63,412 nucleotides of DNA, taken from the NCBI GenBank assembly GCA_944388775.1, contig CALXKC010000002.1, forward strand, positions 1 to 63,412, given 5' to 3'. How positions within the stretch are numbered: the first letter of the stretch is position 1; each line of letters begins with the position of its first letter. The stretch comes from an uncultured Clostridia bacterium (GTDB taxonomy: Bacteria > Bacillota > Clostridia > TANB77 > CAG-508). Shown here in pieces: positions 1 to 50,254 of the stretch. The position numbers and the translations under genes were made by a program. A model generated the notes under the pieces. That model worked only from the letters and a program-made list of their open reading frames with translations. It had not been told where the DNA came from and did no database searches.

Positions 1-121
1 TTTGTAACAAAAAATTAAAATTTTTGTAACATTAAGAATTCTAAAAAATCGCTTGATTTTTTCTTGCTGATATAGTAGAATAGAAAACGCAAACAGGTAT
101 TTGAAGATAGTTTGGGAAAGA

Positions 122-175
122 GGAGTGTCCTCAAATCCCTAAAATCAGGGATTTTAAGGACCGTCCCCTAATCCC
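122..175 (-). repeat. GGGAC-box hairpin repeat, type 1 (inverted orientation)
   Basis: The reverse complement reads gggattaggggacggtccttaaaatccctgattttagggatttgaggacactcc. This is near-identical to the copies at 2528, 50187 and 42864(rc). Confidence 0.85.
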
Positions 176-192
176 GGAAAGGAAGATGTGTA

Positions 193-2535
193 GTGCAAGA
201 TGTTTTAGAAGGTTTAAATGATAAACAATATGAAGCTGTAATAAATACAGAAGGACCATGCTTAGTTATAGCAGGAGCTGGAAGTGGTAAGACAAAAGTT
301 TTAACACATAAAATTGCATATTTAATAGGAGAAAAAGGTGTTAAGCCATGGAATATATTAGCAATTACATTTACTAATAAAGCAGCAAATGAAATGAAAG
401 AGAGAATTGCAAATATTGTAGGTGATGATGCAAAAGATATTTGGATGGGAACATTCCATTCTATTTGTGTGCGTATTTTAAGAAAATTTATTGACAGAAT
501 TGGTTTTGATTCATCTTTCATAATTTTTGATACTTCTGACCAAAAGACTTTAGTAAAAGGCTGCTTAAAAGATTTATCAATAGATGATAAATTATTTAAT
601 GATAGAGCAGTATTATCAGAAATTAGTAATGCTAAAAATGAAATGTTAGATCCAGACCAATATGCCGTAAGAGCAAATGGAGATTTTAGAAAAGAAAAAA
701 TTGCAACAGTTTATGAATTGTATCAGAAGAGATTAAAAGAAAATAATGCAGTAGATTTTGATGATATTATTAATTATGCAATAAAAATATTAGAAGAAAA
801 TCCAGATATATTAGAATATTATTCAAATAAATTTCAATATGTTTTAGTAGATGAGTATCAAGATACAAATAAATCACAATTTACATTAGTTACAATGCTA
901 GCATCTAGAAATGGAAATATTACAGTAGTTGGAGATAATGACCAAGGAATATATAGCTTTAGGGGTGCTGATATTTCAAATATTTTGAATTTTGAAAGAG
1001 ATTTCCCAGGTACAAAGATTATAAAATTAGAGCAAAATTATCGTTGTACAGGAAATATATTAAAAGCTGCAAATGCAGTTATAAAAAATAATGAAGTTAA
1101 ATACAAAAAAGAATTATGGACACAAAATGAAGAAGGAAATTTGCCTAAAGTATATCAAGCAGATAATGAATATGATGAAGCAACATATATTGTAGAGCAA
1201 ATTGAACATTTAAAAAGAGAAGAATATTATAAATATTCAGACTTTGCTGTACTTTATAGAATGAATACTCAATCAAGAGCAATAGAAGATATTTTAAGAA
1301 GAGAAAATATACCATATAAAATTGTTGGTGGATTAAAATTCTATGAAAGAAAAGAAATTAAAGATACTATTGCGTATTTGAGATTGATACAAAATGGTAA
1401 TGATAATTTGAGTTTAAAAAGAATAATTAATGAACCTAAAAGAGGAATTGGAAAAACAAGTTTAGATAAAGTAGAACAAATTGCAGAAGCAAGTGGAAAT
1501 TCTATGTATGAAGTTATAAAAAAAGCTGATGAATTTGGTTTAAATAGAGTATTTTTAAATTCTAGAGAATTTGTAAATGTTATAGAAGAATTAAAAAGTA
1601 AAAAAGATGAACTTAGTGTTTCTGAATTGATAAAATTAACGCTTAAGAAAACAGGATATACAAAGGCTTTAGAAGCGGAAAATACAATCGAAGCAGAAAA
1701 TAGAATTGCAAACTTAGATGAGTTATTAACAGTTGCAATTGAATTTGAAGAAGAATTTGCAGAAAATTCACTATCAGAATTTTTAGAAGGAATAACATTG
1801 TCAAGTGATTTAGATAATATGGAAGAACAAGAAGATTCCGTTACATTAATGACATTACATAGTGCGAAAGGTTTGGAATTCCCAGTAGTATTTTTAGTTG
1901 GTATGGAAGAAGGAATTTTCCCAGGATATCAATCTATGATGGATCCTCAAGAGCTAGAAGAAGAAAGAAGATTATGCTATGTTGGAATTACTAGAGCAAA
2001 AGAAAACTTATTTTTAACATGTAGTAAGCAAAGAACAGTATTCGGCTCAACAAGCTATAATCCAGTATCTAGATTTTTAAATGAAATACCAGAAGACTTG
2101 TTAGAAGGTTATCAAGAAGCATTTGGAGAGCCAGATAATAATAAAAATCAAATGTTTAAAGAATCTAATTATAGTTGGACATATGGTAGTAGAGATAATA
2201 GAAATAACGGAAATAGTGCAATTAAGACATATAAAATTAATGAAAAAGAACCTGCTATGTCAGCAAGTAATAAAAATAGTGGTTTTGCATTTAGAACAGC
2301 AGAAAGTTTTCTAAATAGTATAGGAAAAAAATCTGCTATAAATACAAATAACCAAGTAGATTTGTCAAAATATGAGGCAGGTGTTAGAGTTTTTCATAAG
2401 AAATTTGGAGAAGGTACTATTAATATGGTAGAGCCTGAAGGTGAAGACTTAAAAGTTGATATTAATTTTGATAAAGCTGGTCATAAGAGATTGATGGCTA
2501 AATATGCAAATTTAGAAATCATAGACAGGGATTAG
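193..2535 (+). CDS. pcrA: ATP-dependent DNA helicase PcrA (UvrD family)
   Basis: 780-aa ORF with a GTG start. Helicase motifs AGAGSGKT, VDEYQDTN, LEQNYRC, TLHSAKGLEF and YVGITRA are present, plus a C-terminal Tudor-like tail (VRVFHKKFGEGTI). Confidence 0.95.
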   Translation: MQDVLEGLNDKQYEAVINTEGPCLVIAGAGSGKTKVLTHKIAYLIGEKGVKPWNILAITFTNKAANEMKERIANIVGDDAKDIWMGTFHSICVRILRKFIDRIGFDSSFIIFDTSDQKTLVKGCLKDLSIDDKLFNDRAVLSEISNAKNEMLDPDQYAVRANGDFRKEKIATVYELYQKRLKENNAVDFDDIINYAIKILEENPDILEYYSNKFQYVLVDEYQDTNKSQFTLVTMLASRNGNITVVGDNDQGIYSFRGADISNILNFERDFPGTKIIKLEQNYRCTGNILKAANAVIKNNEVKYKKELWTQNEEGNLPKVYQADNEYDEATYIVEQIEHLKREEYYKYSDFAVLYRMNTQSRAIEDILRRENIPYKIVGGLKFYERKEIKDTIAYLRLIQNGNDNLSLKRIINEPKRGIGKTSLDKVEQIAEASGNSMYEVIKKADEFGLNRVFLNSREFVNVIEELKSKKDELSVSELIKLTLKKTGYTKALEAENTIEAENRIANLDELLTVAIEFEEEFAENSLSEFLEGITLSSDLDNMEEQEDSVTLMTLHSAKGLEFPVVFLVGMEEGIFPGYQSMMDPQELEEERRLCYVGITRAKENLFLTCSKQRTVFGSTSYNPVSRFLNEIPEDLLEGYQEAFGEPDNNKNQMFKESNYSWTYGSRDNRNNGNSAIKTYKINEKEPAMSASNKNSGFAFRTAESFLNSIGKKSAINTNNQVDLSKYEAGVRVFHKKFGEGTINMVEPEGEDLKVDINFDKAGHKRLMAKYANLEIIDRD

Positions 2536-2581
2536 GGGACGGTCCTAAAAATCCCTAAAAGCAGGGATTTAGGGACGGACC
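2528..2581 (+). repeat. GGGAC-box hairpin repeat, type 1
   Basis: Sequence is gggattaggggacggtcctaaaaatccctaaaagcagggatttagggacggacc. It overlaps the last codons and the TAG stop of pcrA. The AAATCCCT/AGGGATTT stem has a 6-nt loop. Confidence 0.9.
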
Positions 2582-3238: not shown

Positions 3239-4246
3239 TTATTTAATAAATTGTTCTTTTTTTAGTCCAGTTATTTTTAAAATAATATTTATATCTATTT
3301 TTTCTGAAAGCATTTTTTTTGCTACATCAATTAAACTTTCTTGTCTTCCTTCTTGTAAGCCTTCTTCTATTGCTTTTTTTCTCATTTCTTCTGCTTCTTT
3401 TCTTAATACTTCATGAATATGTGCCATAACTTCATCTCCTCCTTTTTCTTTTAATATTATTTCTTTAATTTTTTCTAGCTTATCTTTTTCTAATCTATCT
3501 TCCCAAATATATCCTACTTCTCTTGCAAATTCTTCTCTTTCTTTTTCACTTGTTAGAGTTTCGGAAAACTTTTCTACAGCATTTAATAGTTGTTCAGATG
3601 AATTCAATCGATCAATTACAGATATTCTTGCTATTGCTGTTCTTCTTTCTATTGCTTCTTCTACACTTCGTATATCAACTAAATTATATCTAATGATTGA
3701 GCTACTACCTTTACGATGTTTAAAGACCTCTTGTGATTCTTCTAGTCCTTTTTTTGCTGTCCATTTCGATGTTCCTGCATAAATCACTATTGGTACAATA
3801 GTTGGTTGCAGTTTTTTATTTTTTTTGTCTTTTGAATTTTTTCTTGAATCCATGATTGATAGACTATAATCTGCCATTCTAAATGGCAGATTTTCATCTA
3901 CTTTTGTCTGATGTTCAATTAGAAAGAAAACTTCTTTACCTTTTAATTTGTATACAATATCTGCAATTCTTTCTTCAAATTTATTTGTTATATAATGTGT
4001 TTCATATTTTTCTAAATTTTCTGCCTTAATTTTGTCTTCAGGATCCAATTCCTGATTTATTAATTTAGCTACTTCTTCTTTATTATTTAATATTTGTCTA
4101 AATAGTTTATCATGTTTATGATGTTTATATTGTTTTTTTGCAGTATCTAATATATAGTCTTCACTTACATCATTTAAAACGTGTGTTACATTTTGATTTA
4201 CAAAAATAACTAAATCTAAATAATCTTTCATTGTATAATATTCCAA
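3239..4246 (-). CDS. Rpn-family recombination-promoting nuclease / putative transposase (YhgA-like PD-(D/E)XK)
   Basis: 335-aa ORF. It has the N-terminal HDKLFRQIL motif and the core ADIVYKL...FLIEHQTKVD..LPFRM. The C-terminal repeated helical module (IDVAKKML...ILKITGL) is typical of the family. Confidence 0.8.
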   Translation of the reverse strand: MEYYTMKDYLDLVIFVNQNVTHVLNDVSEDYILDTAKKQYKHHKHDKLFRQILNNKEEVAKLINQELDPEDKIKAENLEKYETHYITNKFEERIADIVYKLKGKEVFFLIEHQTKVDENLPFRMADYSLSIMDSRKNSKDKKNKKLQPTIVPIVIYAGTSKWTAKKGLEESQEVFKHRKGSSSIIRYNLVDIRSVEEAIERRTAIARISVIDRLNSSEQLLNAVEKFSETLTSEKEREEFAREVGYIWEDRLEKDKLEKIKEIILKEKGGDEVMAHIHEVLRKEAEEMRKKAIEEGLQEGRQESLIDVAKKMLSEKIDINIILKITGLKKEQFIK

Positions 4247-7875: not shown

Positions 7876-8907
7876 ATGAAACTTTTTACATTTGGATCAA
7901 AAGATATTGGAATTGATTTGGGAACAGCAAATATTTTAGTTACAGTAAAGGGAAAAGGAATAGTTTTAAAAGAACCTTCAGTTGTAGCAATAGATAGAAA
8001 AACTGGAAATATATTGGCAACAGGAAATGAAGCAAAAGAAATGTTAGGAAGAACACCAGAGCAAATAAAAGCAGTAAGACCATTAAAAGATGGAGTAATT
8101 GCAGATTTTACTGCTACACAATTAATGCTTAAAAACTTAATAGAAAAAGTAGGGAAAAGATATAATGTTGGAAAGCCTAGAGTTGTTGTAGGTGTACCTT
8201 CAGGTATTACAGAAGTTGAAGAAAGAGCAGTAGAAGAGTCAGTAATTCAAGCTGGAGCAAAAGAAGTATATTTAATTGAAGAACCAATGGCAGCAGCAAT
8301 TGGTGCGTCACTAGATGTTGGAGAGCCAAGTGGAAGTATTATTGTTGATATTGGTGGAGGAACAACAGAAGTTGCAGTTATTTCTTTAGGAGGAATAGTT
8401 GTAAGCCATTCTTTACGTGTTGCTGGGGATGAATTAGATGAGGATATAGTGAACTTTGTTAAAAAGGAAGAAAATTTAGCAATTGGAGAAACAACAGCTG
8501 AACAAATAAAAATGCAAATAGGTTGTGCGATGCCACTTATGACAGAAATGTCAATGGAAGTTAGAGGAAGAGACTTAGCAGATGGATTACCTAGAACAGT
8601 GACAGTTACATCTACACAAATAGAAGAGGCAATGAAAGAATCTATTGGAAAAATTGTAGAAATTGTTAAACTAACATTGGAAAAAACACCACCTGAACTT
8701 GCATCAGATATTATGGAAAAAGGAATTGTGCTAGCTGGTGGTGGTGCATTAATAAAAAATCTAGATAAATTATTAAGTTTAGAAACAGGTATGCCAGTAT
8801 ATGTTGCAGAAGAGCCTTTAGACTGTGTAGTTAGAGGAACAGGAAAAACTTTAGAAGATTTAGAAAGATTAAAAACAGTTTTAATTAATGCAAGAAAAAG
8901 GAAATAG
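7876..8907 (+). CDS. mreB: rod shape-determining protein MreB
   Basis: 343-aa ORF with actin-fold motifs IGIDLGTANILV and DIGGGTTEVAV. Confidence 0.95.
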   Translation: MKLFTFGSKDIGIDLGTANILVTVKGKGIVLKEPSVVAIDRKTGNILATGNEAKEMLGRTPEQIKAVRPLKDGVIADFTATQLMLKNLIEKVGKRYNVGKPRVVVGVPSGITEVEERAVEESVIQAGAKEVYLIEEPMAAAIGASLDVGEPSGSIIVDIGGGTTEVAVISLGGIVVSHSLRVAGDELDEDIVNFVKKEENLAIGETTAEQIKMQIGCAMPLMTEMSMEVRGRDLADGLPRTVTVTSTQIEEAMKESIGKIVEIVKLTLEKTPPELASDIMEKGIVLAGGGALIKNLDKLLSLETGMPVYVAEEPLDCVVRGTGKTLEDLERLKTVLINARKRK

Positions 8908-8935: not shown

Positions 8936-9751
8936 ATGTATAGGAATAAGAAAGCAGGAACTGTTGGAATTATAATTACTATTATTATTTTAATATTGAT
9001 TGTTATTTTCTCAAATGGAGAAAGTAATACTGCATTTTTTGAAAATGCAGCTAGTAATTTAGTTATGCCTATTCAAAATGGTTTAACTTATTTGAAAAAC
9101 AAAATAAGTGGTAATAATACATTTTTTACAGATATAAATAATTTACAAGCAGAAAATGAAGAGTTAAAACAAAAGAATAGTGAATTAGAGCAATCATTAA
9201 GAGAACTAGAAAATATAAAAACAGAAAATGAAACATTAAAAGAATATTTGAATTTAACTGAAAAATACGGGGAATATAGTACAGTACCGGGATATGTTAT
9301 AAATAAGGATATAAGTAATTATTCAAAAACAATAGTGATTAATTTAGGATCAGATGATGGAGTATCAGAAAATATGACTGTTATAGCAGACCAAGGTTTA
9401 GTTGGATATGTTGTTTCAGTTACAGATACAACAGCAAAAGTGGAAACAATAATTGATACGGCAAGTTCAGTTAGTTGTATTATGAGCTCAAATGATGAAA
9501 GTATAGTATGTAAAGGAACAATGGATGATGATTCTTCATTAAGGGCTATGTATATTCCAACTGATAGTAATATTGCACAGGGTGAAAGTATTGAAACATC
9601 AGGTTTGGGTGGAATTTATCCAAAAGGAATACATGTTGGAACAGTAGAAAGAGTAACAAATACTCAAAATTTGACAGATAGATATGCAATAGTGAAGACA
9701 GCAGTTGATTTTGATAAGTTGAATACGGTCTTAGTTATAACAAACCAATAA
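8936..9751 (+). CDS. mreC: rod shape-determining protein MreC
   Basis: N-terminal TM helix, coiled coil (LQAENEELKQKNSELEQ) and C-terminal SGLGGIYPKGIHVG. Confidence 0.9.
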   Translation: MYRNKKAGTVGIIITIIILILIVIFSNGESNTAFFENAASNLVMPIQNGLTYLKNKISGNNTFFTDINNLQAENEELKQKNSELEQSLRELENIKTENETLKEYLNLTEKYGEYSTVPGYVINKDISNYSKTIVINLGSDDGVSENMTVIADQGLVGYVVSVTDTTAKVETIIDTASSVSCIMSSNDESIVCKGTMDDDSSLRAMYIPTDSNIAQGESIETSGLGGIYPKGIHVGTVERVTNTQNLTDRYAIVKTAVDFDKLNTVLVITNQ

Positions 9752-9760
9752 ATGAATAGA

Positions 9761-9884
9761 GCTGATGATATATTTATATATTTTTCCGTAATCCCCATTC
9801 AAGAAAATGTAATTCACATACGTTCAAACATTTTCTAGAAAGGTCCCCCCAATATACTTCAAAATATATAAATATATCATCAGC
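9761..9884 (+). repeat. ~120-nt structured hairpin element (MITE-like), copy 1
   Basis: 24-nt terminal inverted repeats gctgatgatatatttatatatttt / aaaatatataaatatatcatcagc. The core ...taatccccattcaagaaaatgtaattcac..cgttcaaacattttctagaaaggtccccccaatatacttc is near-identical to 37495-37616. Confidence 0.85.
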
Positions 9885-9937
9885 AAATAAAAGAATATAG
9901 TTTTTGTAAGTTAAATAGCAAACTAAACGAAGTAAAA

Positions 9938-10504: not shown

Positions 10505-12640
10505 TTGGTAAGTATTAAAAGAGGAAATACTAGAAAAGTAGCAAAAAAGGCAAATACAAATTTAAGATTTAATATAATAACAGTATTAATATATATTGTA
10601 GGAATTATTTTAATTGCTAGATTATTCGACTTGCAAATTGTTCACGGTGCAGAATATAGAGAACAATCAAATACGAGGCTAACAAGAGAAAGTACAATTG
10701 AGGCAGCAAGAGGTTCAATATTAGATAGAAGTGGACAAGAATTAGTTACATCAAATGCACAATTTTCTTTGGAAATGTACAAGACAAAAGTAGATGACCA
10801 AACATTAAATCAAGATATATTAAATATGGTACAAGTATTAGAAAAATATGGTTGTTCATATTCTGATGATTTCCCAGTAAATACTGACACATTTGAATAT
10901 ACAATATCAGGAGATGAATTAGCTGAGTGGAAAGAAGATTATGATATAGATGAGGATATGACAGCTGAACAGGCTTTTTATGAATTTAAAGATAAATATG
11001 AAATTCAAAATACAGATATTCAAGAAATTAGAAAAATAATTGCAATAAGATATTTGATATCACAAAAAGGATATAGTAGTACGAGAGCTGTTACAATTTC
11101 AGAAAATATACCAAGAGAAGCGGTTGCAGAATTTAGTGAGAGCTCATCTAAATTTGCAGGTATAAATATTGTTGTTAAACCAGTTAGAAAATATACTTCT
11201 GGAACTTTAGCATCACATATTTTAGGATATGCAGCACAAATAAGTTCAGAAGAATATGAATCTAGAAAAGAATATTATTCTCAAAATGATATAATTGGAA
11301 AAACAGGAATAGAATATGTTTTTGAAGAATATTTAAAAGGAAAAAATGGAACAAAACAAATTGATATGGCAGTTGATGGTTCTACAACTGCTGAATATAT
11401 AGCAGAAGAAGCTATTAAAGGTTCAGATATAGTTCTAACAATAGATGCAAATTTACAACGAGTTACAGAGGAAGCCTTAAAAGCAAATATTGAGAAAATA
11501 CGAAATGGTGGATTTGGTCAAAGATTTGATACAAATGCAGGTGCTTGTGTTGTAATGAATGTAAATACTGGAGAAGTACTTGCAATGGCAAGTTATCCAG
11601 ATTATAACCCAGCAGATTTCGTTGGAGGAATTAGTACAGAAAACTGGAATAATTATACAAATAATGAAGCAAAACCATTGGTAAATAAAGCCGTACAAAA
11701 TTCATATTCACCAGGTTCTACTTTCAAAATGATTACAGCAATAGCAGGACTAGAGTCTGGAACAATAACTACTACAACAAAAATAAATGATGTTGGAGTG
11801 TATAGAAAATATAGAGATTATCAACCAAAATGTTGGTATTATAGTGATTATGGTAGAGGACATGGATGGCTAGATGTTGCAGGTGCAATTGAAAAATCAT
11901 GTAACTATTTCTTCTATCAAACAGCAGATAATATGGGAATTGACACTTTAGTAAAATATGCTAAATATTTTGGCTTAGGAACAAAAACTGGTATAGAATT
12001 GCAAAGTGAAACAGCAGGACAATTGGCAAGTAGAGAAACAAAACAAAAATTACATCCAAATGATCCAACTTGGTATCCAGCAGACTCATTACAAGCAGCA
12101 ATCGGACAAAACGACAATGAATTTAGCCCATTGCAAATGGCAAAATATATAAGTATGCTTGCAAATGGTGGTAAGCAAATAGATGTAAGTATTGTAAAAA
12201 CTATTAGAAATTCAGACGGATCAGAAGAATCAAAAGAAGAAATTAATAGTTTTGTAAATCAAAAATTAGGAATTGAAGAAACACAAACTGAAGATATAAC
12301 AATCAATCAAAATAACTTAAATGCAGTATTATCAGGAATGCAATCTGTTACAGGTGATTCTGGAGGAACAGCATATGTTAGATTTAAAGACTTTAATATA
12401 AGCGTTGGAGGAAAAACAGGTTCAGCTGAAGCACCAAATGATAAAGTTCATGCATGGTTTGTTGGATTTGCACCATTTGAAAATCCAGAAATAGCAATAG
12501 TTGTTATGGTTGAAAATGGAGGACATGGAAATTATACGGCAGAAGTTGTTAGAGATATAATGGAAGAGTATTTTGGAATGAATACACAAGATATTCAAGA
12601 GGATATGACTGCTGAGCCATACACGCAAAGTTTAAATTAG
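10505..12640 (+). CDS. mrdA: penicillin-binding protein 2 (class B transpeptidase)
   Basis: TTG start with a GGCAGGTG RBS. It has an N-terminal TM helix and the motifs SPGSTFK (SxxK), KSCN (SxN) and GGKTGSAE (KTG). Confidence 0.9.
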   Translation: MVSIKRGNTRKVAKKANTNLRFNIITVLIYIVGIILIARLFDLQIVHGAEYREQSNTRLTRESTIEAARGSILDRSGQELVTSNAQFSLEMYKTKVDDQTLNQDILNMVQVLEKYGCSYSDDFPVNTDTFEYTISGDELAEWKEDYDIDEDMTAEQAFYEFKDKYEIQNTDIQEIRKIIAIRYLISQKGYSSTRAVTISENIPREAVAEFSESSSKFAGINIVVKPVRKYTSGTLASHILGYAAQISSEEYESRKEYYSQNDIIGKTGIEYVFEEYLKGKNGTKQIDMAVDGSTTAEYIAEEAIKGSDIVLTIDANLQRVTEEALKANIEKIRNGGFGQRFDTNAGACVVMNVNTGEVLAMASYPDYNPADFVGGISTENWNNYTNNEAKPLVNKAVQNSYSPGSTFKMITAIAGLESGTITTTTKINDVGVYRKYRDYQPKCWYYSDYGRGHGWLDVAGAIEKSCNYFFYQTADNMGIDTLVKYAKYFGLGTKTGIELQSETAGQLASRETKQKLHPNDPTWYPADSLQAAIGQNDNEFSPLQMAKYISMLANGGKQIDVSIVKTIRNSDGSEESKEEINSFVNQKLGIEETQTEDITINQNNLNAVLSGMQSVTGDSGGTAYVRFKDFNISVGGKTGSAEAPNDKVHAWFVGFAPFENPEIAIVVMVENGGHGNYTAEVVRDIMEEYFGMNTQDIQEDMTAEPYTQSLN

Positions 12641-31100: not shown

Positions 31101-33144
31101 AGAAAGTATTGGAAATTATAATAAGATAGTAATTGGAGAAAATAATGAACCAATTTTAGAACTTGAACCTCAAACTAAAAAATATATTTATGTACAATTA
31201 GAAGTAAATAGAGATAATATTAAAGATATCTTAGAAGGAAATGTAGATGTTAAACTAGATAATGTAGTAGAAATAAATAAATATGGAACTACTATTGTAA
31301 ATGAACAAGGACAAGAAGAAATATATGCAGGGATAGATAAAGATTCACAACCAGGAAATATGGATGTAACAGATAGAACAACATATGAAGATGATACAGA
31401 TAGTGCACCTGGAATGATGTTAAAATTACAAGAAGAAAGACAGATAAATGGTAAAGTTTTCTTAGATGAAGATGAAAATGCATTAGATGCAGGAAAGCGT
31501 ACACATGCTGGAGTAGAAAGACAAGGTGATGGAAAATATACTAAAGGTGAAAACTCTATCAAAAATGTTCAGGTAACTCTAAAAAATCCAGATGGAAGTA
31601 CAGCACAGTTCTATAATGAAGATACTGGAAATTTTGAAGATGCAGTAACTTATACAGATGAAAATGGTGATTATACATTTGAAGGATTTGTACCAGGTGA
31701 TTATTACATAACATATACATGGGGCGGAGATATAGTAAATGGAGAAAATTCAACATATATTGATGCTGGAGGAAATGAACAAACTATAAATGTTCAAAAT
31801 TATAAGAGTACAGTCGTAAATGAAACAGTATGGAACCAAAAAGAATCAAATGATCAATGGTATAAAGATAGTTTTAAACAAAATTATGATGGAATAGAAT
31901 GGGACTCTTCAACTGGAACAGATATAAGAAATTCAGATGCAGTTGATGATTGGAACAAAAGACTAGAAATAGACAATGAGATAGGAGAAGTAACATATAG
32001 TGAAACACAAAAATTAGAAAATACTTATAATGGAAATCCAGATGGAGGAGAAACATATACTAATATTCAAATGGATTCAAATACGCCAGAATTTGTTGTA
32101 AACCTTGAATATTCAGACACAACTAAAGAAAATCCAGATACAAATACTACTGATCAAAGAGATGAATTTGAGCAAAATGCAGATGGAACATTAGCTAAAG
32201 ATCAAAATGGTGACTATATATCAAATGGATATTTTACAAATACTTTAAAAAATATAGACTTTGGAATTATAGAAAGAGCAAGGCAAATATTAGAATTAGA
32301 TAAAGAAATAACAGCAGTAAAAATAACTTTAGCAAATTCAAATGTAATAGTAAATGCTCAGTTAGAAGATGGAAAATTAAAAGATTTTGCACAATATGTA
32401 ACAGTAATACCACCTTCAAATGCAAATAGTGGACAAATAAAAGTTGAAGTAGACCAAGAGATAATACAAGGAGCAACACTTAATGTAGAATATGGATTAA
32501 AAGTAACAAATAGTAGTGAGCTAGATTATCAAACACAAGAATTCTATATGTATGGAGTGGGATACGGAGAGAATGAATCTGCACTTGTAACGTTACAACC
32601 ATCACTATTAATAGATTACGTAGATAGTAATATGTCAATAGATGATAGTGATTCTAATAGTTGGACTGGAATTGCACAAGCGGATAGAGCAGATTACTTA
32701 TATGATGTTAATAGTAACCCAGATGGATTATTGTCTAAAGATTTGGAAAGCACATTAAATAGTACAATTAGGGTTGTAACAACAGAACAATTAAAAAATA
32801 TTGAATTAAAACCTATAGGAAATGAAGTTGATACAAGTGCAACAGCGAAGTTAAATGCACAAAGATTGTTATCGAATAATGATGAAACATTCTTAGAAAA
32901 TCATGCTGAAATTATAAGAGTTACTAGAAATCACGGTGGTCCAGTATTAATTACAACACCAGGAAACTATGTACCAGGAAATACTTATACATCAGAAGAA
33001 GATGATTCAGAATCACCAAGTGTAACAGTAGTTCCACCAACAGGATTAACAACAAATACTATTTCATATATTATAATTGCAATAAGTTCACTAGGAATAC
33101 TAGTTGCAGGAATAATCTTAATTAAGAAATTTGTGATTAAATAG
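28114..33144 (+). CDS. giant surface protein D (paralog of B with an inserted ricin-type lectin domain)
   Basis: ATG at 28114 follows the AAAGGAGG RBS; the track start at 28099 (TTG) is rejected. Signal peptide ..NEVSA/FY. It has the TYCIQAGQ motif and a beta-trefoil with three Q.[WF] motifs. It is collinear with B (GPFNWTF, GLYQREQPDL, YAGIDKDSQPG, NIDFGIIERA). The C-terminus is VPPTG, a TM helix, then KKFVIK. Confidence 0.85.
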   Translation: MKRKLIISILLLMSLFLILNLNEVSAFYSIGTKLTVDVARETYADLDLNGPNAITYCIQAGQPVNSGTQYTVTRYAYINGRAANINIGNNVNGNYVDGETKYIECDENAIMAYIISQPNGDGSQHQNGIYSAKQKAIYNYFATWANRVGFDENLGITSGWYGDDPEVITILNNAREYAKSLTTQTASIKNNNAVEDSFSKQLYEYQGQEYIKVGPFNWTFTGNLDSVNVYDQNNKQLSVKYAKYDGGNLKISDSASGIIKSDTGFYILINAKDNVEKISKITAKVKATKNVIKAEIIGLETDATTNGLEDQNLIAINMVANTEQQNTEASLEMNDINLLGSISVLKRDSITENTLDNVYFTIRMLTGSKAGQYVSVDDNGNAVYTTEEARVKTVNGLINIQNAYFGEYELTEVENENYGYEDLPRVIGTYSVNLFNTVQDDKRVIKDGVYEIESALDSNKVVDLFSALTDNGTNIQLYTRNNTYAQRFYVKYIGDGYYKIISLIPNKNLEVANGGTEPGTNVWVYEDNDTDSQKWRLQDAGNGYYNIISKLNGLCLDVDDALTADGTNIKVFTANYSNAQKFKFNNLDNSMDGNTNGTVQVVVENTRKYIQVSGYVWEDMISSKSTVRDYLYTEPDTDEENRDRLVANVTVKLKDSEGNAVNFKILNENGEYEEVLETKTDENGSYRMYDILIDEIDNYYVEFTYNGMSYTTVPIVDISYNNASKALEGDERTRFNNEYAQITDDENNVQNVGQANNSNGEMSYNINYDYDTQSQKSSVNYGPNSEYGYDGQSFPINGTDEQYLITATTYNGYVSAGGSGYLSDIYTAEYIKQNGITEIENINMGLYQREQPDLSVAKDIERANVSVAGAEHIYIYADRFNEELWSKNGLYGVEANDLEPQVKFQQEGAYGSMSYTRYLYASDIMYKDGENADDKLSVKMTYAISVKNQATTLNAQIYELEDYYDTKYVDILGIGTEMNSDGSIKEGTEIEYYESGESIGNYNKIVIGENNEPILELEPQTKKYIYVQLEVNRDNIKDILEGNVDVKLDNVVEINKYGTTIVNEQGQEEIYAGIDKDSQPGNMDVTDRTTYEDDTDSAPGMMLKLQEERQINGKVFLDEDENALDAGKRTHAGVERQGDGKYTKGENSIKNVQVTLKNPDGSTAQFYNEDTGNFEDAVTYTDENGDYTFEGFVPGDYYITYTWGGDIVNGENSTYIDAGGNEQTINVQNYKSTVVNETVWNQKESNDQWYKDSFKQNYDGIEWDSSTGTDIRNSDAVDDWNKRLEIDNEIGEVTYSETQKLENTYNGNPDGGETYTNIQMDSNTPEFVVNLEYSDTTKENPDTNTTDQRDEFEQNADGTLAKDQNGDYISNGYFTNTLKNIDFGIIERARQILELDKEITAVKITLANSNVIVNAQLEDGKLKDFAQYVTVIPPSNANSGQIKVEVDQEIIQGATLNVEYGLKVTNSSELDYQTQEFYMYGVGYGENESALVTLQPSLLIDYVDSNMSIDDSDSNSWTGIAQADRADYLYDVNSNPDGLLSKDLESTLNSTIRVVTTEQLKNIELKPIGNEVDTSATAKLNAQRLLSNNDETFLENHAEIIRVTRNHGGPVLITTPGNYVPGNTYTSEEDDSESPSVTVVPPTGLTTNTISYIIIAISSLGILVAGIILIKKFVIK

Positions 33145-33187
33145 GGACGTGCCAAAGCGTTTCAAAATGAAACAAAAGGGACAGACC
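33144..33187 (+). repeat. GGGAC-box repeat, type 2
   Basis: Sequence is gggacgtgccaaagcgtttcaaaatgaaacaaaagggacagacc, immediately after the TAG stop of gene D. It matches both arms of the 41696-41813 element. Confidence 0.85.
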
Positions 33188-33250: not shown

Positions 33251-33423
33251 ATATGTAATAAAATAAAAAACGTAAAAAGAGTAAATAAAAGAAATAAAGG
33301 AAAACCTCTTAAAAAAACATAAAAAAATGTAAAAAACTTTTTTGAATTAGATTACCAAAAAAGACAAAAACCACAAAGGACAAGTAGTAAAATAAGCTTA
33401 TCAAAAACAAAGAGGTGGTAAGG

Positions 33424-35871
33424 ATGTTTCAAAATATGGATGGAAATGCAATAAATGTAAATGAAGAAAAAAAGAAAGTAAAAAGTGGAGTAAATATTTT
33501 TTCAAATGTATTTACAAAGAAAAATATATTAATATACATAGTATCATTATTAGTATCATTAGTAAGTATAGGATGGGACTTTTCAGTATTTAGCATAAGT
33601 TTATTAGGTGCTTGTTTAGGCTCATCTGTACCTGTACTTGGAATTGTACTAATTTCATTAGTAGGAAATGGTATTAAATTTGGAGTAGGAGGGGCATTAG
33701 AATACTTTTTAACAACATTAGTTCTAGTAGTATCTCTTTTCATATTTAAACCAAGATATAACGAAAATGAAAGAAATGAAAAAATAAGAATAGGAAAAAA
33801 TATCTTTTTAGCAACAATTATAATACAAATAGCAAAATATGCAATTTCAGGATTTACGCTTTATGATATATTATCAGGAATTACAGTATCAATAATTGCA
33901 ATGGTATTTTATAAAATATTTGTAAATTCTATTGTAGTATTACAAGACTTCAGAGAAAAAAAGGCATTTTCAATTGAAGAATTAATGGGAGCAAGTCTGT
34001 TGCTTGCGATTTCCGTAGGAGCATTTGGAGATTTTAACATAGTAGGATTTAATATTAGAAACATATTAAGCATATTTATAGTAATGGCATTAGGATGGAA
34101 AAATGGAATTTTAGTTGGGACAACCTCTGGAGTAACAATAGGAGTTACTTTAGGAGTAATAACAGGTTCAGAGCCAATTATGATAGCAGCATATGCAATA
34201 TCAGGTATGCTTGCAGGAATATTCAATAAACTAGGAAAAATTGGAGTAATAATAGGATTTGCATTAGGAAATGTGCTACTTGCATATGTTTCAAATGGAT
34301 ATACTGTAGAATTAATATATTTTAAAGAAATATTAGTAGCATCAATAGGATTATTATTATTACCAAAAAATTTTCAAATTGATTTAGAAGAGTTTATAGG
34401 AAATTCAAAATTTTTACCAGTTACACCAAATGGAGCACTAAATAAAAGTAAAGAAGTTGCAGAAAACTTAACACATGTATCAGATGCAATAAAAGAAATG
34501 GCAACATCATATAGAGGAAATATCGAAGATGCAAGTGATGTAGAAATAAAAGAAAAAAATAAAGAAATATTTATGACAGAATTATTAAATAATTTAGAGC
34601 CATATAAAGATAATATGCTATATGATGACATAGCAAATCCAGAAAGTGAAATCACACAAAAAATATTTGAATATTTATTAGATAAACAAGAAATAGACAG
34701 AAAAGCATTATTACAAATATTTGCAGATTGTAATAGCTATGTTGTAGGATTTGATGATAAAGAAGTTAGTCAATATTTAGAAGACAATATATCTCAAATG
34801 ATTACATTAATAAACATTTCATATAAAGTTAGTAAGAATGATTTTATATGGAGGAAAAAGATAGAGCAGAGCCAAAAAAATATAGGAAATCAATTAACGG
34901 CAATGTCAAAAGCCATAGAAAAAATGGCAAAAGGAATGAAACAAGAAATACAAGAAGAAGCAAGCGGAAAAAGTGAAAATTATCAAAAAGAAACAATAGA
35001 AATTACAGAACTTTTAAAACAAAAAGATATACAAGTAGAAGAAATATCAATACAAAAACAAGATAGATTTTTTGTTACAATATATGCAAAAGAGATATTA
35101 GAAACAGCAAAGATAGAATTAATTGAAAAACTACTAACAAAGAGTTTAAATGAAAAAATAGTATTAAATGACGAAACGAGTGTTGGAACAAAATACACAT
35201 TTTTATCAGATGATAGATTTGAAATGGCAATAGGAAATAGTATGGCAACAAAATCAAAAAGTGAAGTATCAGGGGATAGTGTATTAAATATAAGATTAAA
35301 AGATGGAAAATACCTAGTTGCAATAAGTGATGGAATGGGAACAGGAAATCAAGCTAAGAAAAGCAGTACACAAGCTTTAAAAATGCTAGAAAACTTGCTA
35401 TTGTCAGGCTTTGATAAAAAAACATCATTAGACTTAATAAACTCATCATTAATAAATCAGGATAATGAAGTATTTGCAACACTAGACATAGCAATTGTAG
35501 ACTTATATAACGGAAACATAGAATTTATAAAAAGTGGAGCATGTCCAACATACATAAAAAACAATAAAAGAGTACAAATAATAAAAGCAAATTCATTACC
35601 AACAGGAATAATAGAAAAAGGAAACATACAAACATTTGACTATGACATAAACTCAGGTGATATTCTATTAATGTGCACAGATGGAGTATTAGACGCAAAC
35701 ATAGAATACAAAAATAAAGACCTATGGTTAAAATACTTATTAGAAGACATAGAAACAACAAATACAGGAAAAATAGCAGACTTAATATTAAATGAAGCAA
35801 TAGACAACAACTTTGGAGTAATAAAAGATGATATGAGTATAATAGTATGCAAATTCAAAAAGAGGGATTAG
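33424..35871 (+). CDS. spoIIE: stage II sporulation protein E (PP2C phosphatase SpoIIE)
   Basis: ATG at 33424 follows the AGAGGTGG RBS. The N-terminal third is polytopic membrane. The C-terminal PP2C motifs are SGDSVLNI....AISDGMGTGNQA and DDMSIIV. Confidence 0.9.
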   Translation: MFQNMDGNAINVNEEKKKVKSGVNIFSNVFTKKNILIYIVSLLVSLVSIGWDFSVFSISLLGACLGSSVPVLGIVLISLVGNGIKFGVGGALEYFLTTLVLVVSLFIFKPRYNENERNEKIRIGKNIFLATIIIQIAKYAISGFTLYDILSGITVSIIAMVFYKIFVNSIVVLQDFREKKAFSIEELMGASLLLAISVGAFGDFNIVGFNIRNILSIFIVMALGWKNGILVGTTSGVTIGVTLGVITGSEPIMIAAYAISGMLAGIFNKLGKIGVIIGFALGNVLLAYVSNGYTVELIYFKEILVASIGLLLLPKNFQIDLEEFIGNSKFLPVTPNGALNKSKEVAENLTHVSDAIKEMATSYRGNIEDASDVEIKEKNKEIFMTELLNNLEPYKDNMLYDDIANPESEITQKIFEYLLDKQEIDRKALLQIFADCNSYVVGFDDKEVSQYLEDNISQMITLINISYKVSKNDFIWRKKIEQSQKNIGNQLTAMSKAIEKMAKGMKQEIQEEASGKSENYQKETIEITELLKQKDIQVEEISIQKQDRFFVTIYAKEILETAKIELIEKLLTKSLNEKIVLNDETSVGTKYTFLSDDRFEMAIGNSMATKSKSEVSGDSVLNIRLKDGKYLVAISDGMGTGNQAKKSSTQALKMLENLLLSGFDKKTSLDLINSSLINQDNEVFATLDIAIVDLYNGNIEFIKSGACPTYIKNNKRVQIIKANSLPTGIIEKGNIQTFDYDINSGDILLMCTDGVLDANIEYKNKDLWLKYLLEDIETTNTGKIADLILNEAIDNNFGVIKDDMSIIVCKFKKRD

Positions 35872-35892
35872 GGGACGGTCCTAAAAATCCCT
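35864..35892 (+). repeat. GGGAC-box repeat, type 1, left half only
   Basis: Sequence is gggattaggggacggtcctaaaaatccct. It overlaps the final codons (..RD) and the TAG stop of spoIIE. Confidence 0.8.
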
Positions 35893-37494: not shown

Positions 37495-37616
37495 CAAATG
37501 ATATATTTATATATTTTTGCATAATCCCCATTCAAGAAAATGTAATTCACTAACGTTCAAACATTTTCTAGAAAGGTCCCCCCAATATACTTCAAAATAT
37601 CTAAATATATCATTTG
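37495..37616 (+). repeat. ~120-nt structured hairpin element (MITE-like), copy 2
   Basis: The core is near-identical to 9761-9884 and in the same orientation. The outer stem ends differ (caaatgat.../...atcatttg) but remain complementary. Confidence 0.85.
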
Positions 37617-37699
37617 CTAATGCAAAAGTATTAAAAGTGACTGTGAATTGTGAGGTAAAAATAATTATAATAATAAATTCAAAAGAGAAGGTGATAATT

Positions 37700-39019: not shown

Positions 39020-39382
39020 ATGCAGATAACTTGTGGAACAGATATAATTGAAATAGAAAGAATTAAAGAGAGTATAGAAGATTTAGGTGAAAAGTTTCTA
39101 AATAGAATTTATACACAAAAAGAAATTGAATATTGTGAAAGTAAGAAAGGTCAAAAATATCAGCATTATGCTGCTAGATTTGCTGCAAAAGAGGCAATAT
39201 TTAAAGCAATTTCAAAAGAATTAAAAGATAAATATGAAATAGGTTGGAAAGACATGGAGATTTTAAATGATGTGCAGGGAAGGCCACAAGTTAAAATTAA
39301 AGGAGTCCAAAGAGAAAATATAGATATCAGCATTTCGCATTGTAGGGATTATGCTGTAGCAATGGTGGTGATGTCCATTTAG
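39020..39382 (+). CDS. acpS: holo-[acyl-carrier-protein] synthase
   Basis: 120 aa with a GAGGAG RBS. Motifs are GTDIIEIERI and ARFAAKEAIFKA. Confidence 0.9.
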   Translation: MQITCGTDIIEIERIKESIEDLGEKFLNRIYTQKEIEYCESKKGQKYQHYAARFAAKEAIFKAISKELKDKYEIGWKDMEILNDVQGRPQVKIKGVQRENIDISISHCRDYAVAMVVMSI

Positions 39383-39429
39383 GGACGTTTCTAAATGAGA
39401 CAATTTGTCCTTTTTGGGACGCATTTGTC
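39372..39429 (+). repeat. GGGAC-box repeat, type 3
   Basis: Sequence is tgtccatttagggacgtttctaaatgagacaatttgtcctttttgggacgc. It is about 80 percent identical to the reverse complement of 44864-44916 and covers the last codons and stop of acpS. Confidence 0.8.
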
Positions 39430-39480
39430 TTTTATAATTAGATTATGAAACAAAAAGTTCAAAAACACGAAACAGAAAAG

Positions 39481-39572
39481 CACAAAATTATGAAATAAAA
39501 TGCCACAAAATTACGAAGTAAAGAACCACAAAAATATGAAATAAAATACCACAAAATATTGAAACAAACAAA
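39481..39572 (+). repeat. 23-nt tandem direct repeat, 4 units
   Basis: Units are cacaaaattatgaaataaaatgc / cacaaaattacgaagtaaagaac / cacaaaaatatgaaataaaatac / cacaaaatattgaaacaaacaaa, with exact 23-nt phasing. Confidence 0.8.
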
Positions 39573-39626
39573 AAATCATGATATAATAACTATAAAAGTT
39601 AGTATATTATTCTAGGAGATGATTTT

Positions 39627-41712: not shown

Positions 41713-41813
41713 GCAAAAAATGCACAAAAGGGACAGACCTAAGTGTTAATAGAAATTAACGTTTAAAAGGTCTGTCCCTTTTGGTATCATTTTGAAACGA
41801 TTTGGCACGTCCC
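41696..41813. repeat. GGGAC-box repeat, type 2, complete inverted pair (also the bidirectional terminator hairpin between tatD and htpX)
   Basis: The left unit is gggacatgccaaaatgagcaaaaaatgcacaaaagggacagacc. The right unit is its inverted counterpart ggtctgtcccttttggtatcattttgaaacgatttggcacgtccc. A 15-bp stem aaaagggacagacct / aggtctgtccctttt forms, and the left unit overlaps the tatD 3' end. Confidence 0.85.
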
Positions 41814-42719: not shown

Positions 42720-42863
42720 TTGACAATTAATTTTTTCGTATAAATAGTTTTTAAGGTTAAATATTAATAATAGTATGATAAGTTTATTATACGAATTTCT
42801 CCTTTCATCTTATTAAATAAGAGACATCTTTAATAGATAAAGAATGTCCCTCTTTTGTTTGAA

Positions 42864-42918
42864 GGTCCGTCCCTCAATCCCTAAAAACAGGGATTTTAAG
42901 GACCGTCCCCCGAATCCC
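42864..42918 (-). repeat. GGGAC-box hairpin repeat, type 1 (inverted orientation)
   Basis: The reverse complement reads gggattcgggggacggtccttaaaatccctgtttttagggattgagggacggacc. It lies between lemA and htpX. Confidence 0.85.
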
Positions 42919-42923
42919 TCTTT

Positions 42924-43475
42924 CTAAAAGCTTACTTTTACATTTTTTCTAGCTTCATCGCTATCTGCTGTGAATAAATCACGAGCTTTGAATTTGAATA
43001 TGTTTGCGATTATATTAGAAGGGAAAACTTCTAATTTTGTGTTATACATTGTTACAGTGTCGTTATAAAATTGTCTTGAAAAAGATATTTTATTTTCTGT
43101 ATTTCTTAATTCTTCTGATAGTTCTGAGAAGTTTTGATTAGCTTTTAAATCTGGATAGTTTTCTGCAACAGCCATAATTGTTTTTAAAGCAGTTGACAAT
43201 TCGCTATCTAAATTTGCTTTTTCAGCTACAGTTTGTGTTTCTGACCAAGAACTTCTTAGACTAGTAATTTTTTCAAATGTTTCTTTTTCATGTGTCATAT
43301 AGCCTTTTACTGTTTCAACAAAATTTGGTATTAAATCAAATCTTCTTTGTAATTGTACATCGATTTGACTCCAAGCATTGTCTACTTTTATTCTTGCTTG
43401 AACTAAACTGTTGTACATTCCAATTACTGCGATAACTAGAATAACTACAATGGCTAATATTATCCAACCAATCAT
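42924..43475 (-). CDS. lemA: LemA family protein
   Basis: 183 aa with an N-terminal TM helix and the motifs NAWSQIDVQLQRR.DLIPN and ENYPDLKAN. Confidence 0.9.
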   Translation of the reverse strand: MIGWIILAIVVILVIAVIGMYNSLVQARIKVDNAWSQIDVQLQRRFDLIPNFVETVKGYMTHEKETFEKITSLRSSWSETQTVAEKANLDSELSTALKTIMAVAENYPDLKANQNFSELSEELRNTENKISFSRQFYNDTVTMYNTKLEVFPSNIIANIFKFKARDLFTADSDEARKNVKVSF

Positions 43476-44749: not shown

Positions 44750-44863
44750 AATTTGATTTGAAAATGATTGAGGTAGGAATGTAAAGTTTTCTGCCTCGTT
44801 TTTCTTTTAATTGCTATTTTTACTAAAACATGATAAAATAGGGCTACTAGAAAGATACATGAT

Positions 44864-44916
44864 GTGTCCCAGAATGGACAAAAGTGTCCATATGGAAACG
44901 TCCCCAAATGGACAAA
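44864..44916 (-). repeat. GGGAC-box repeat, type 3 (inverted orientation)
   Basis: The reverse complement reads tttgtccatttggggacgtttccatatggacacttttgtccattctgggacac. It abuts the RBS of xth. Confidence 0.8.
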
Positions 44917-44930
44917 AAGGAGGAAAATAG

Positions 44931-45701
44931 ATGAAGTTAATATCATGGAATGTAAATGGAATAAGAGCATGTGTGAATAAAGGATTCAAAGAATTCTTTA
45001 AAGAAATAGATGCAGACATATTTTGCATACAAGAAACAAAATGTCAAGAAGGGCAAATAGAATTAGAATTTGAAGGATATAAAAGTTTTTGGAATAGTGC
45101 TGAAAGAAAAGGATACTCAGGAACAGCAATATTTACAAAAATAAATCCATTATCAGTTAGATATGGAATTGGAATAGAAGAGCATGATAAAGAAGGAAGA
45201 GTTATAACACTAGAATTTGAAGACTTTTATATGGTAAATATCTATACACCAAACTCAAAAAGAGAATTGGAAAGACTAGATTATAGACAAATATGGGAAG
45301 ATGAAATAAGAAAATATTTATTAAAATTAAACGAAACAAAACCTGTAATAATGTGTGGAGATTTAAATGTAGCACATGAAGAAATAGACTTAAAAAATCC
45401 AAAAACAAATAGAGGAAATGCAGGATTTACAGATGAAGAAAGAGCAAAAATGACAGAACTATTAAATGCTGGGTTTGTAGATAGTTTCCGTTACCTATAT
45501 CCTGATAAAGAAGGACAATATAGTTGGTGGTCATATATGGGAAAAGCAAGAGAAAAGAATGCAGGATGGAGAATTGACTATTTTATAGTATCAAAAGATA
45601 TAAAGGATAAAATAAAAGAAGCCACAATTTATCCAGAAGTTATGGGAAGCGACCATTGTCCAGTCGGGCTTGTGGTTAGTTTGGGGACAGGTTCGGACTG
45701 A
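44931..45701 (+). CDS. xth: exodeoxyribonuclease III
   Basis: 256 aa with motifs SWNVNGIRA, CIQETK, GDLNVAH and SDHCPV. The last ~7 residues (SLGTGSD) are encoded by the downstream repeat. Confidence 0.9.
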   Translation: MKLISWNVNGIRACVNKGFKEFFKEIDADIFCIQETKCQEGQIELEFEGYKSFWNSAERKGYSGTAIFTKINPLSVRYGIGIEEHDKEGRVITLEFEDFYMVNIYTPNSKRELERLDYRQIWEDEIRKYLLKLNETKPVIMCGDLNVAHEEIDLKNPKTNRGNAGFTDEERAKMTELLNAGFVDSFRYLYPDKEGQYSWWSYMGKAREKNAGWRIDYFIVSKDIKDKIKEATIYPEVMGSDHCPVGLVVSLGTGSD

Positions 45702-45729
45702 CCATTTTTGGATAGTTTAGGGACGCCAC
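45683..45729 (+). repeat. GGGAC-box repeat, divergent type 3
   Basis: Sequence is ggggacaggttcggactgaccatttttggatagtttagggacgccac. The two GGGAC boxes are 36 nt apart, and it overlaps the xth stop. Confidence 0.7.
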
Positions 45730-50187: not shown

Positions 50188-50241
50188 GGATTAGGGGGAC
50201 GGTCCTAAAAATCCCTGCTTTTAGGGATTTAGGGACGGACC
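50187..50241 (+). repeat. GGGAC-box hairpin repeat, type 1
   Basis: Sequence is gggattagggggacggtcctaaaaatccctgcttttagggatttagggacggacc. It starts on the last base of the ftsH TAG stop. Confidence 0.9.
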
Positions 50242-50254
50242 TTAAAAATAAAAG

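Follow-up and report, generated by a model that had tools for sequence, protein, structure and literature searches.

A 63,412-nucleotide stretch of DNA from an uncultured Clostridia bacterium (NCBI assembly GCA_944388775.1, contig CALXKC010000002.1, positions 1 to 63,412), hereafter referred to as the window, carries a short repeat, T1, whose copies adjoin or overlap genes recognised with Pfam as encoding PcrA/UvrD (193-2535), SpoIIE (33415-35871), LemA (42924-43475, reverse strand) and FtsH (48376-50187). T1 is, in our judgement, likely to be a family of non-autonomous palindromic DNA elements of the REP (repetitive extragenic palindrome)/REPIN type belonging to AT-rich uncultured gut Clostridia and mobilised by a Y1 enzyme.

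Copies of T1 in the window

A profile search of the window (nhmmer), using a profile built from 59 family members, returned exactly five T1 copies with E-values of 6e-20 to 1e-10, the next and unrelated match having an E-value above 0.2. The same five copies had been located in an earlier reading of the letters without database searches (hereafter the sequence-only reading), and their central loops differ as listed there (GATTTT, AAAAGC, GCTTTT and GTTTTT on the element strand). The pattern AAATCCCT-N6-AGGGATTT, with up to two mismatches, was matched four times against an expectation of 0.02, and four or more matches arose in none of 100 shuffles of the window, the G+C content of which is 27.4%. 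The copies and their parts are as follows.

119-176, reverse strand: T1 copy 1, 1.5 units, inverted in the 5' leader of pcrA, with the unit end abutting the pcrA ribosome-binding site; the 3' box within it is the variant GAGGACACTCC
2527-2581 (nhmmer span 2526-2586), forward strand: T1 copy 2, the copy under study, in the 1.5-unit form, spanning the pcrA stop
2527-2533, 2535-2545 and 2550-2556, forward strand: first unit of copy 2, consisting of 5' arm AGGGATT, box 1 GGGGACGGTCC and 3' arm AATCCCT
2557-2562, 2563-2570 and 2572-2581, forward strand: remainder of copy 2, consisting of spacer AAAAGC, second arm AGGGATTT and box 2 GGGACGGACC
2533-2535, forward strand: pcrA stop codon TAG, inside copy 2
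35862-35892 (nhmmer span to 35897), forward strand: T1 copy 3, a monomer (unit only), with the spoIIE stop codon TAG (35869-35871) inside
42859-42919, reverse strand: T1 copy 4, 5 nt past the lemA stop (42924-42926, reverse strand)
50186-50246, forward strand: T1 copy 5, its first G overlapped by the ftsH stop codon TAG (50185-50187)

The copies had been described as following pcrA, spoIIE, ftsH and lemA. The neighbours are correct, but the stops of pcrA and spoIIE lie inside the repeat and that of ftsH overlaps it. The copy given as 122-175 does not stand at a gene 3' end; it is inverted in the leader of pcrA, preceded by a promoter-like site at 53-81 and followed by the ribosome-binding site of that gene.

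Organisation of the T1 unit

A pattern scan of a species-representative genome collection gave at least 111 T1 loci from at least 21 assemblies. The counts of forms, contexts, stops and orientations given below refer to the window and the listed loci (852 kb in all), among the matches listed, and individual loci carry the prefix L. Alignment of the copies defines the basic unit as a hairpin of 29-35 nt, (AAC)AGGGATT-AG-GGGACGGTCCT-AAA-AATCCCT(GTT), in which a 7-bp stem, AGGGATT/AATCCCT, closes a 15-nt loop holding the invariant box GGGGACGGTCC, and an inner helix with G-U pairs, GGGG/TCCT, is always pairable. Four arrangements of the unit are found. Form I, the form seen in the window, comprises 1.5 direct units. 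The half unit (AGGGATT-TA-GGGACGGACC) is without a closing arm, and its 5' arm forms base pairs with the 3' arm of the complete unit. Form II is an inverted dimer, U-N6-U', which makes a perfect hairpin of about 64 nt (-60 kcal/mol, z -9.8) and occurs in L009, L010, L011, L019, L024, L029, L045, L050, L060, L064, L079 and L094. Form III is the monomer, exemplified by 35862-35892 of the window. In the fourth arrangement, inverted units stand around 70-255 nt of other sequence (L031, L037, L005, L006, L058, L054). The pairing between the two units of Form I accounts for the central stem that had been reported as 8 bp long and as the centre of the repeat; the stem exists, being 7 bp long in the copy at 42864-42918, but the functional unit is the 29-35 nt hairpin with the GGACGGTCC box in its loop, repeated 1.5 times in direct order.

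The inverted units that sometimes bracket 70-255 nt of other sequence, together with a YhgA/Transposase_31-like gene 700 nt from copy 2, could be taken to mean that T1 is a conventional miniature inverted-repeat transposable element (MITE), i.e. what is left of a DDE-type insertion sequence (IS) after internal deletion, mobilised via its terminal inverted repeats. We consider this very improbable: a target-site duplication was found at none of the dimers, no full-length IS with T1 ends was found in the 852 kb, lone units as short as 29 nt persist, and relatives of Transposase_31 occur in just two other loci among those listed. The YhgA/Rpn-type gene itself (PF04754, E-value 6e-26; window 3239-4246, reverse strand), which lies downstream of copy 2 and whose relatives are not enriched near T1 elsewhere, was also set aside as a mobiliser.

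A recurrent element of about 200 nt with promoter-like inverted ends (…TTTCTCGGCTAAC…CCAATAGG-hairpin-CCTATTGG…) was observed between inverted T1 units, in either orientation, at L031:1343-1603, L037:2374-2649, L084:7031-7320, L080:4713-5025, L065:4700-4813 and L052:7917-8000. It has no match in Rfam and may represent either a small gene or another mobile element, one that targets T1 dimers.

Distribution of T1 and its position at stop codons

At least 21 species-level assemblies carry T1. They come from uncultured gut Clostridia and are metagenome-assembled genomes (MAGs) from chicken, human and other faecal samples, and several of the T1-bearing loci are 91-97% identical to the window. The 852 kb hold 158 T1 units with at most one mismatch, as against none in shuffled sequence. 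No match to the T1 pattern was found in 2.9 million viral contigs. The sequence-only reading had not recognised the repeat, and Rfam likewise gave no match at the gathering score for the window and ten loci, with chance-level matches alone, around copy 2 as well, at E-values up to 10; a literature search with the T1 sequence string returned nothing relevant. A perfect dimer was also observed in L011 (CALVEU010000134.1, a 3.1-kb contig) of a MAG labelled Candidatus Gastranaerophilales, the contig being most likely Clostridial and mis-binned.

All T1 copies are intergenic or overlap a stop codon, and an open reading frame (ORF) of at least 80 codons ends nearby in 83 of 121 unique contexts. The stops cluster between offsets -5 and +6 from the start of the unit, with peaks at -2 (TAGggatt, n=17), +5 (gggatTAG, n=15), +6 (n=8) and -5 (n=9), the offsets -2, +5 and +6 together accounting for 40 of the 83 upstream ORFs. 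TAG is the stop in 53 of the 83, and stops inside the unit favour some reading frames over others (p = 8e-6). Of 87 copies of asymmetric form, 65 point the same way as the gene upstream of them (p = 4e-6), and between co-directional genes 19 copies are forward and 5 reverse. Preference for the 3' end of a co-oriented gene, for which the sequence-only reading had likened the repeat to REP elements and bacterial interspersed mosaic elements (BIMEs), is thus borne out beyond the window. Local GC skew, with which transcription was compared with a replication-strand bias, divided the discordant cases 10 vs 6 (p = 0.45), the 8-kb skew being itself driven by gene orientation.

The space that T1 occupies is narrow. 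The ribosome-binding site of the next gene lies within 5-40 nt after many copies, and dimers fit the gaps between stop and Shine-Dalgarno sequence, or between two stops, almost exactly. In reverse copies the outer end of the unit stands 3-8 nt from the Shine-Dalgarno sequence of the next gene, as in window copy 1 before pcrA. Reversed copies in 5' leaders of the window lineage were further observed to carry a variant 3' box, GGGACACTCC, which on the mRNA strand reads GGAGTGTCC and is Shine-Dalgarno-like (window 119-176, reverse strand; L021:3029-3092, L100:4132-4195, L046:737-800, L006:3387-3450). T1 is not followed by the T-run of an intrinsic terminator (CCTTAAAA), and a terminator scan called no T1 copy. 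AT-rich terminators separate from the repeat are visible by eye downstream of the pcrA and ftsH copies, as had been proposed, the simple scan having missed them because each has fewer than three G-C pairs; none follows the spoIIE copy.

Such positions raise the question of whether T1 is an RNA element under host selection and unconnected with any transposase, placed after stops or before ribosome-binding sites, where it would block 3' exonucleases, provide an RNase III site within operons or tune translational coupling. The orientation bias with transcription is in keeping with this explanation, as are the better folding of the transcribed strand (for the Form I copy 2, -25.2 kcal/mol with z -5.45 on the top strand and -19.4 kcal/mol with z -3.3 on the bottom strand), the G-U pairs of the inner stem, which on the other strand become C-A mismatches, and the location of copies between stops and separate terminators or inside operons. 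We nevertheless hold it to be unlikely, since near-identical copies without compensatory changes stand at unrelated genes and a quarter of the copies are reversed. An RNA function is compatible with T1 if acquired later by exaptation, but not as the way in which the family arose.

Other kinds of element were considered and dropped: integron attC sites, as the flanking genes are housekeeping genes; CRISPR, as there are no arrays; a UAG read-through or PYLIS-like signal, as reading on past TAG at spoIIE and ftsH meets another stop within 8-16 codons; and CsrA GGA sites and uptake sequences, on reading of the sequence.

Turnover among related genomes

The presence and the form of T1 vary among genomes that are 82-97% identical, which also speaks against an RNA element maintained by the host. 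The ftsH site of L094 (82% identical) is free of T1, the stop being followed by the terminator. In L100, pcrA stops three codons earlier with TAA and has no T1, and a different element stands at that 3' end. One orthologous site holds a monomer in L012 and L082 and a dimer in L024 and L091. At spoIIE, the window has the monomer whereas L014, L015 and L088 have the full Form I together with an extra gene of 1.4 kb. Empty or different sites turned up in the more distant genomes only.

The 1.4-kb difference at spoIIE falls exactly at the half copy, between 35892 and 35893 of the window (L014:1794-3209, L088:433-1849, L015:3844-5259), and the relatives have there the missing right half of T1 and an ORF of 401 residues with a Walker-A-like motif (RRCGKS).

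A Y1 transposase gene bracketed by similar hairpins

The search for a transposase was made with probe sequences. Probes for IS200 and IS608 matched nothing, and a probe resembling tyrosine transposases associated with REPs (RAYTs) matched ORFs in L040, L081 and L030, the matches then being verified with Pfam and NCBIfam. A transposase of the type that the sequence-only reading had suggested looking for, here RAYT-like, is present in the same lineages. The ORF at L040:3316-4083 and that in L081, a contig of the MAG closest to the window (96.9% identical), contain the Y1_Tnp domain (PF01797, E-value 3e-15), with the HUH motif NHVHL and the tyrosine motif RYIHQNP. The best NCBIfam model for the protein is that of the REP-associated tyrosine transposases (NF047646, 63.7 bits), the IS200 model giving 22 bits, and its sole match in PDB is E. 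coli TnpA-REP (4ER8, E-value 0.01), which has 165 residues against 256 here. A C-terminal helix-turn-helix (HTH) is faint, HTH_23 being found in 3 of 30 members at E-values of 0.02 or more and other HTH models in one or two members.

The Y1 gene and T1 occur on one contig in L040, L081 and L112. On either side of the gene stand inverted copies of TGTCTCA-TTGGGGACGTTTC-TGTG-TGAGACA-TTTTGTCCATTTT-GGGACATATC, which belong to a second repeat family of the window, T3 (see below); these hairpins share the architecture and the GGGGACG loop box of T1 with different stems. That the same architecture brackets a transposase gene is a further point against T1 having arisen as an RNA element. The gene order mreB, radical-SAM, small ORF, Y1, radA, disA and peptidyl-prolyl isomerase is kept at 56-98% protein identity. 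In L112-L121 and L124 the Y1 gene was observed always directly upstream of radA and disA, genes of DNA repair and integrity. Many of the contigs carrying the Y1 gene span just about 0.9-1.1 kb, an indication that the flanking repeats interrupt assembly.

A metagenome scan with an alignment of 30 Y1 sequences added 80 more distant loci with 30-62% identity. In most of the approximately 54 distant loci with both flanks, inverted hairpins of the form [6-9 bp stem]-R-GGGAC(G/A)(G/T)-3..5 nt-[stem'] stand beside the Y1 gene. The stems are of 44 distinct sequences and pair over at least 6 bp in 51 of 86 cases, whereas arms exchanged among loci do so in 268 of 1720 (p = 6e-19). Therefore, across the sites flanking Y1 genes the loop box GGGACRK is conserved while the stem co-varies. 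The T1 unit, with its 7-bp stem, fits this geometry, and the Y1 locus in L194 has the exact T1 box, GGGACGGTCC, on another stem.

Dispersed repeats follow the flanking type of the Y1 gene, as seen in L124 and also in L122/L123, which have a variant loop (TAGGTTCGTTTG) and in which GGGACRK boxes number 0.10 per kb as against 0.4-0.65 per kb elsewhere. In L122/L123 a paralogous Y1 gene with other neighbours has on its flanks tandem pairs of the hairpin TGTCGCAT-TAGGTTCGTTTGTCT-ATGCGACA, which is also scattered before nearby ribosome-binding sites (8684-8760, 9737-9830, 10790-10870, 14219, 15311 and 16987). Enzyme and repeat here form a second pair, the loop box of which is changed.

Further families on the T1 plan

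The window has 38 occurrences of GGGAC, where 16 would be expected. The excess is mostly due to pairs of TTTRGGGACR boxes, 34-36 nt apart and in direct order round a hairpin, at or over stop codons (33144/33178, 41696/41730, 41813/41778 on the reverse strand, 39382/39416, 44904/44870 on the reverse strand and 45684/45720). Besides T1, the window has no fewer than three families (T2 to T4) of the same plan with different stems, which makes at least four families with GGGAC boxes.

33144-33187, forward strand: T2 (GGGACGTGCC...GGGACAGACC), box 1 overlapped by the TAG stop of an ORF of 1681 residues
41696-41739, forward strand, and 41769-41813, reverse strand: further copies of T2
39371-39425, forward strand: T3 (GTCCATTTAGGGACGTTTC...TTTTTGGGACGCATT), box 1 overlapped by the stop of the ORF 39020-39382; the type that flanks the Y1 gene in relatives
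44861-44917, reverse strand: second copy of T3, in reverse orientation between two plus-strand genes
45684-45729, forward strand: T4 (GGGACAGGTT...GGGACGCCAC), with the stop of the ORF 44931-45701 inside

T3 aligns with T1 arm for arm and box for box. It is itself dispersed, being found at its two sites in the window and also in L100 and at L112:300.

As the four families of the window have in common just the two GGGAC boxes and the spacing of 34-36 nt, they might be seen as duplex DNA sites for a chromosomal protein (a nucleoid protein, gyrase, an IHF-like protein or a regulator) that reads boxes 34-36 bp apart, and REP/BIME elements are known to bind gyrase and IHF (PMC2817692). At the sites flanking Y1 genes, however, the stems co-vary and the loop box alone is fixed, and a folded single strand is therefore favoured over a duplex site. 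There is, moreover, no candidate protein, and the tight link to stop codons would be left unexplained; little credence is accordingly given to such binding sites.

Two other repeats of the window were observed. Directly after the T3 copy at 39371-39425, an A-rich unit of 23 nt (CAAAAxxAxGAAAxAxAAxxxCCA) is repeated in tandem about five times, at 39460-39574. An element of 134 nt, present at 9765-9898 and 37498-37631 (91% identical), has terminal inverted repeats of 24 nt (GCTGATGATATATTTATATATTTT…), is MITE-like and folds as a single long palindrome; its matches in Rfam are at chance level only.

Probable mode of spread

The preferred explanation, REP/REPIN-type elements mobilised by a Y1 enzyme, would operate as follows. 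The genomes that harbour T1 would keep a domesticated, single-locus and vertically inherited RAYT-like Y1 (HUH) gene bracketed by hairpins of like architecture. Its product may recognise the hairpin and the loop box on folded single-stranded DNA at replication forks, and cutting and rejoining of the recognised DNA would seed new copies of T1. E. coli TnpA-REP acts in this manner on REPs, and TnpA of IS200/IS605 on the ends of its element. T1 may be served in trans by the enzyme whose gene is flanked by T3, or by an unseen paralogue. Selection would retain T1 only where it is harmless, which in these compact genomes leaves the short gap that separates a stop from the following ribosome-binding site or terminator, and with TAG or TAA available within the unit translation could still terminate after insertions that clip the last codons. 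Once transcribed, T1 would form stable hairpins right after the stop, which could buffer 3'-to-5' mRNA decay and stabilise the upstream mRNA.

Several observations weigh against this explanation. The Y1 gene found in the T1 lineage is flanked by T3 (loop GGGGACGTTTC), and no Y1 gene flanked by T1 was found in the loci searched. The score of its product on NF047646 lies under the equivalog cut-off of 80 bits, although that of the homologue in L194 (82.6 bits) lies above it. No GTAG or GTGG stands 5' of the foot of the T1 hairpin, the flank before GGGATT being A-A-[C/G/T]-A. T1 shows neither a target-site duplication nor a cleavage motif, the flank being just A-A-N-A, and among close relatives no clean pair of filled and empty sites defines the ends of the element, comparison of 150-nt flanks giving form changes and indels only. 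Compensatory pairs within T1 number zero for either hairpin, and the structure is backed by comparison across families only; it cannot be tested within T1 because the copies are too alike, a near-identity that a young or actively homogenised repeat would be expected to show. The data consist of contigs with no complete genome among them, such that T1 copy numbers per genome are extrapolations at best.

A broader proposal is advanced more tentatively, and we rate it at slightly less than an even chance. Hairpins with a GGGACRK loop may be unrecognised REP-type substrates of the whole clade of long RAYT-like Y1 proteins (TIRYT/subclass 2.1, see below), the enzyme reading the loop instead of a 5' guide. 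The 1.5-unit module, with its two mutually exclusive hairpins, might be the transposing unit. Such systems might be widespread in anaerobic Firmicutes of guts, digesters and sediments, and in some gut Clostridia they may have colonised a large share of the stop-proximal sites.

Significance

REP/RAYT systems are textbook knowledge for Proteobacteria and, to our knowledge, barely documented in Firmicutes. Elements of the T1 type shape the gene ends of abundant uncultured gut Clostridia by providing stop codons and extra C-terminal residues and by filling operon junctions, and they seem to break metagenome assemblies. The comparative set yields a recognition rule that is clear and can be tested, in which the stem varies and the GGGACRK loop is fixed; it applies to a clade of Y1 proteins whose DNA targets have so far been described as loosely similar inverted repeats only. 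These repeats are, in addition, a practical lineage marker and a source of mis-annotation at gene 3' ends.

Comparison with known systems

The closest known systems are the REP/REPIN-RAYT systems and especially the TIRYT/TIRtron repeats; more distant similarities exist to the ends of IS200/IS605 elements and the miniatures derived from them (PATEs), and to CGTC-tagged REPs. With IS200/IS605 ends and PATEs, the present system shares a Y1 HUH enzyme, the putative recognition of subterminal hairpins on one strand, two similar hairpin modules in direct order and the absence of target-site duplications. It differs in having no tnpB and no multi-copy autonomous elements, in a Y1 protein that fits the RAYT model far better than the IS200 model, and in a gene fixed in synteny.

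For CGTC-tagged REPs (for example dRS3 of Neisseria and RPE-4/6 of Rickettsia), no dedicated transposase has been found, and their features are an unpaired CGTC at one end, a stem of 8-9 bp starting with A/T, a loop of 4-5 nt and a CCA tail (PMC3733652). The opposite strand of the T1 box reads YGTCCC (CGTC/TGTC) and stands 2 nt 5' of the 8-bp AAATCCCT/AGGGATTT stem. In the reverse strand of T1, CGTC-CC-TAAATCCCT-N6-AGGGATTT, the tag is, however, parted from the stem by CC, the loop has 6 nt, there is no CCA tail and a Y1 gene is associated. dRS3 has the form ATTCCC-N8-GGGAAT, which resembles AATCCC-N8-GGGATT and is regarded as a lead only.

REPs lie within 20 bp of the end of the upstream ORF and at a variable distance downstream, and GTAG REPs often donate a TAG stop (PMC3733652). 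T1 resembles the REP/REPIN/BIME-RAYT systems of Proteobacteria in consisting of short extragenic palindromes in high copy number, as singles and inverted dimers, which stand 20 nt or less from the upstream stop, sometimes supply it and are at a variable distance from the downstream gene; a Y1 gene that probably occupies a single locus, appears to be vertically inherited and is bracketed by inverted copies, here of the sister family T3, would be a further likeness. The differences, besides the missing 5' guide, are that TTAG or TTTAG occurs in T1 only inside the loop, that the conserved part is a box of 7-11 nt inside a loop of 15-17 nt, that the direct 1.5-unit form is common, that the host phylum is Bacillota, and that the Y1 protein has some 90 more residues and stays under the NCBIfam RayT cut-off. 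T1 is thus neither a GTAG-REP nor a CGTC-REP, as it does not show the defining features of either.

In TIRYT/TIRtrons, a RAYT-like gene stands between inverted repeats with the common motif GGGGWSAS, and some of these repeats belong to moderately abundant dispersed families (Di Nocera, De Gregorio & Rocco 2013, PMC3733652). TIRYTs have been equated with subclass 2.1 of TnpA-Y1, a group of long proteins bearing an HTH at the C-terminus, beside whose genes no REP-like structures were reportedly found (Quentin et al. 2018, PMC6006769). Neither text mentions Firmicute or Clostridial cases of such repeats (PMC3733652, PMC6006769). TIRYT is probably the same as subclass 2.1, to which the Y1 clade described here may belong. 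The present system differs from TIRYTs in that the commonest boxes depart from GGGGWSAS (T1 GGGGACGG agreeing at 7 of 8 positions and T3 GGGGACGT at 6 of 8), that the motif lies in a hairpin loop with a co-varying stem, and that a C-terminal HTH is barely detectable in the Y1 proteins. The resemblance lies in a RAYT-like Y1 gene that is longer than that of E. coli TnpA-REP and is flanked by inverted repeats with a G-rich motif, in the fit of GGGGACAG to GGGGWSAS in L127, L128, L133, L137, L171, L202 and some T1 3' boxes, and in flanking repeats that can belong to dispersed families (singles, dimers, clusters), as seen here for T3, L124 and L122/L123. As the pattern of copies, the dimers and the stops are shared, the guide is absent and the box is close to GGGGWSAS, T1 is therefore placed with repeats of the REP/TIRYT kind. 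This type of element is already known in other phyla, and what is new is the loop-box rule and the distribution in Firmicutes.

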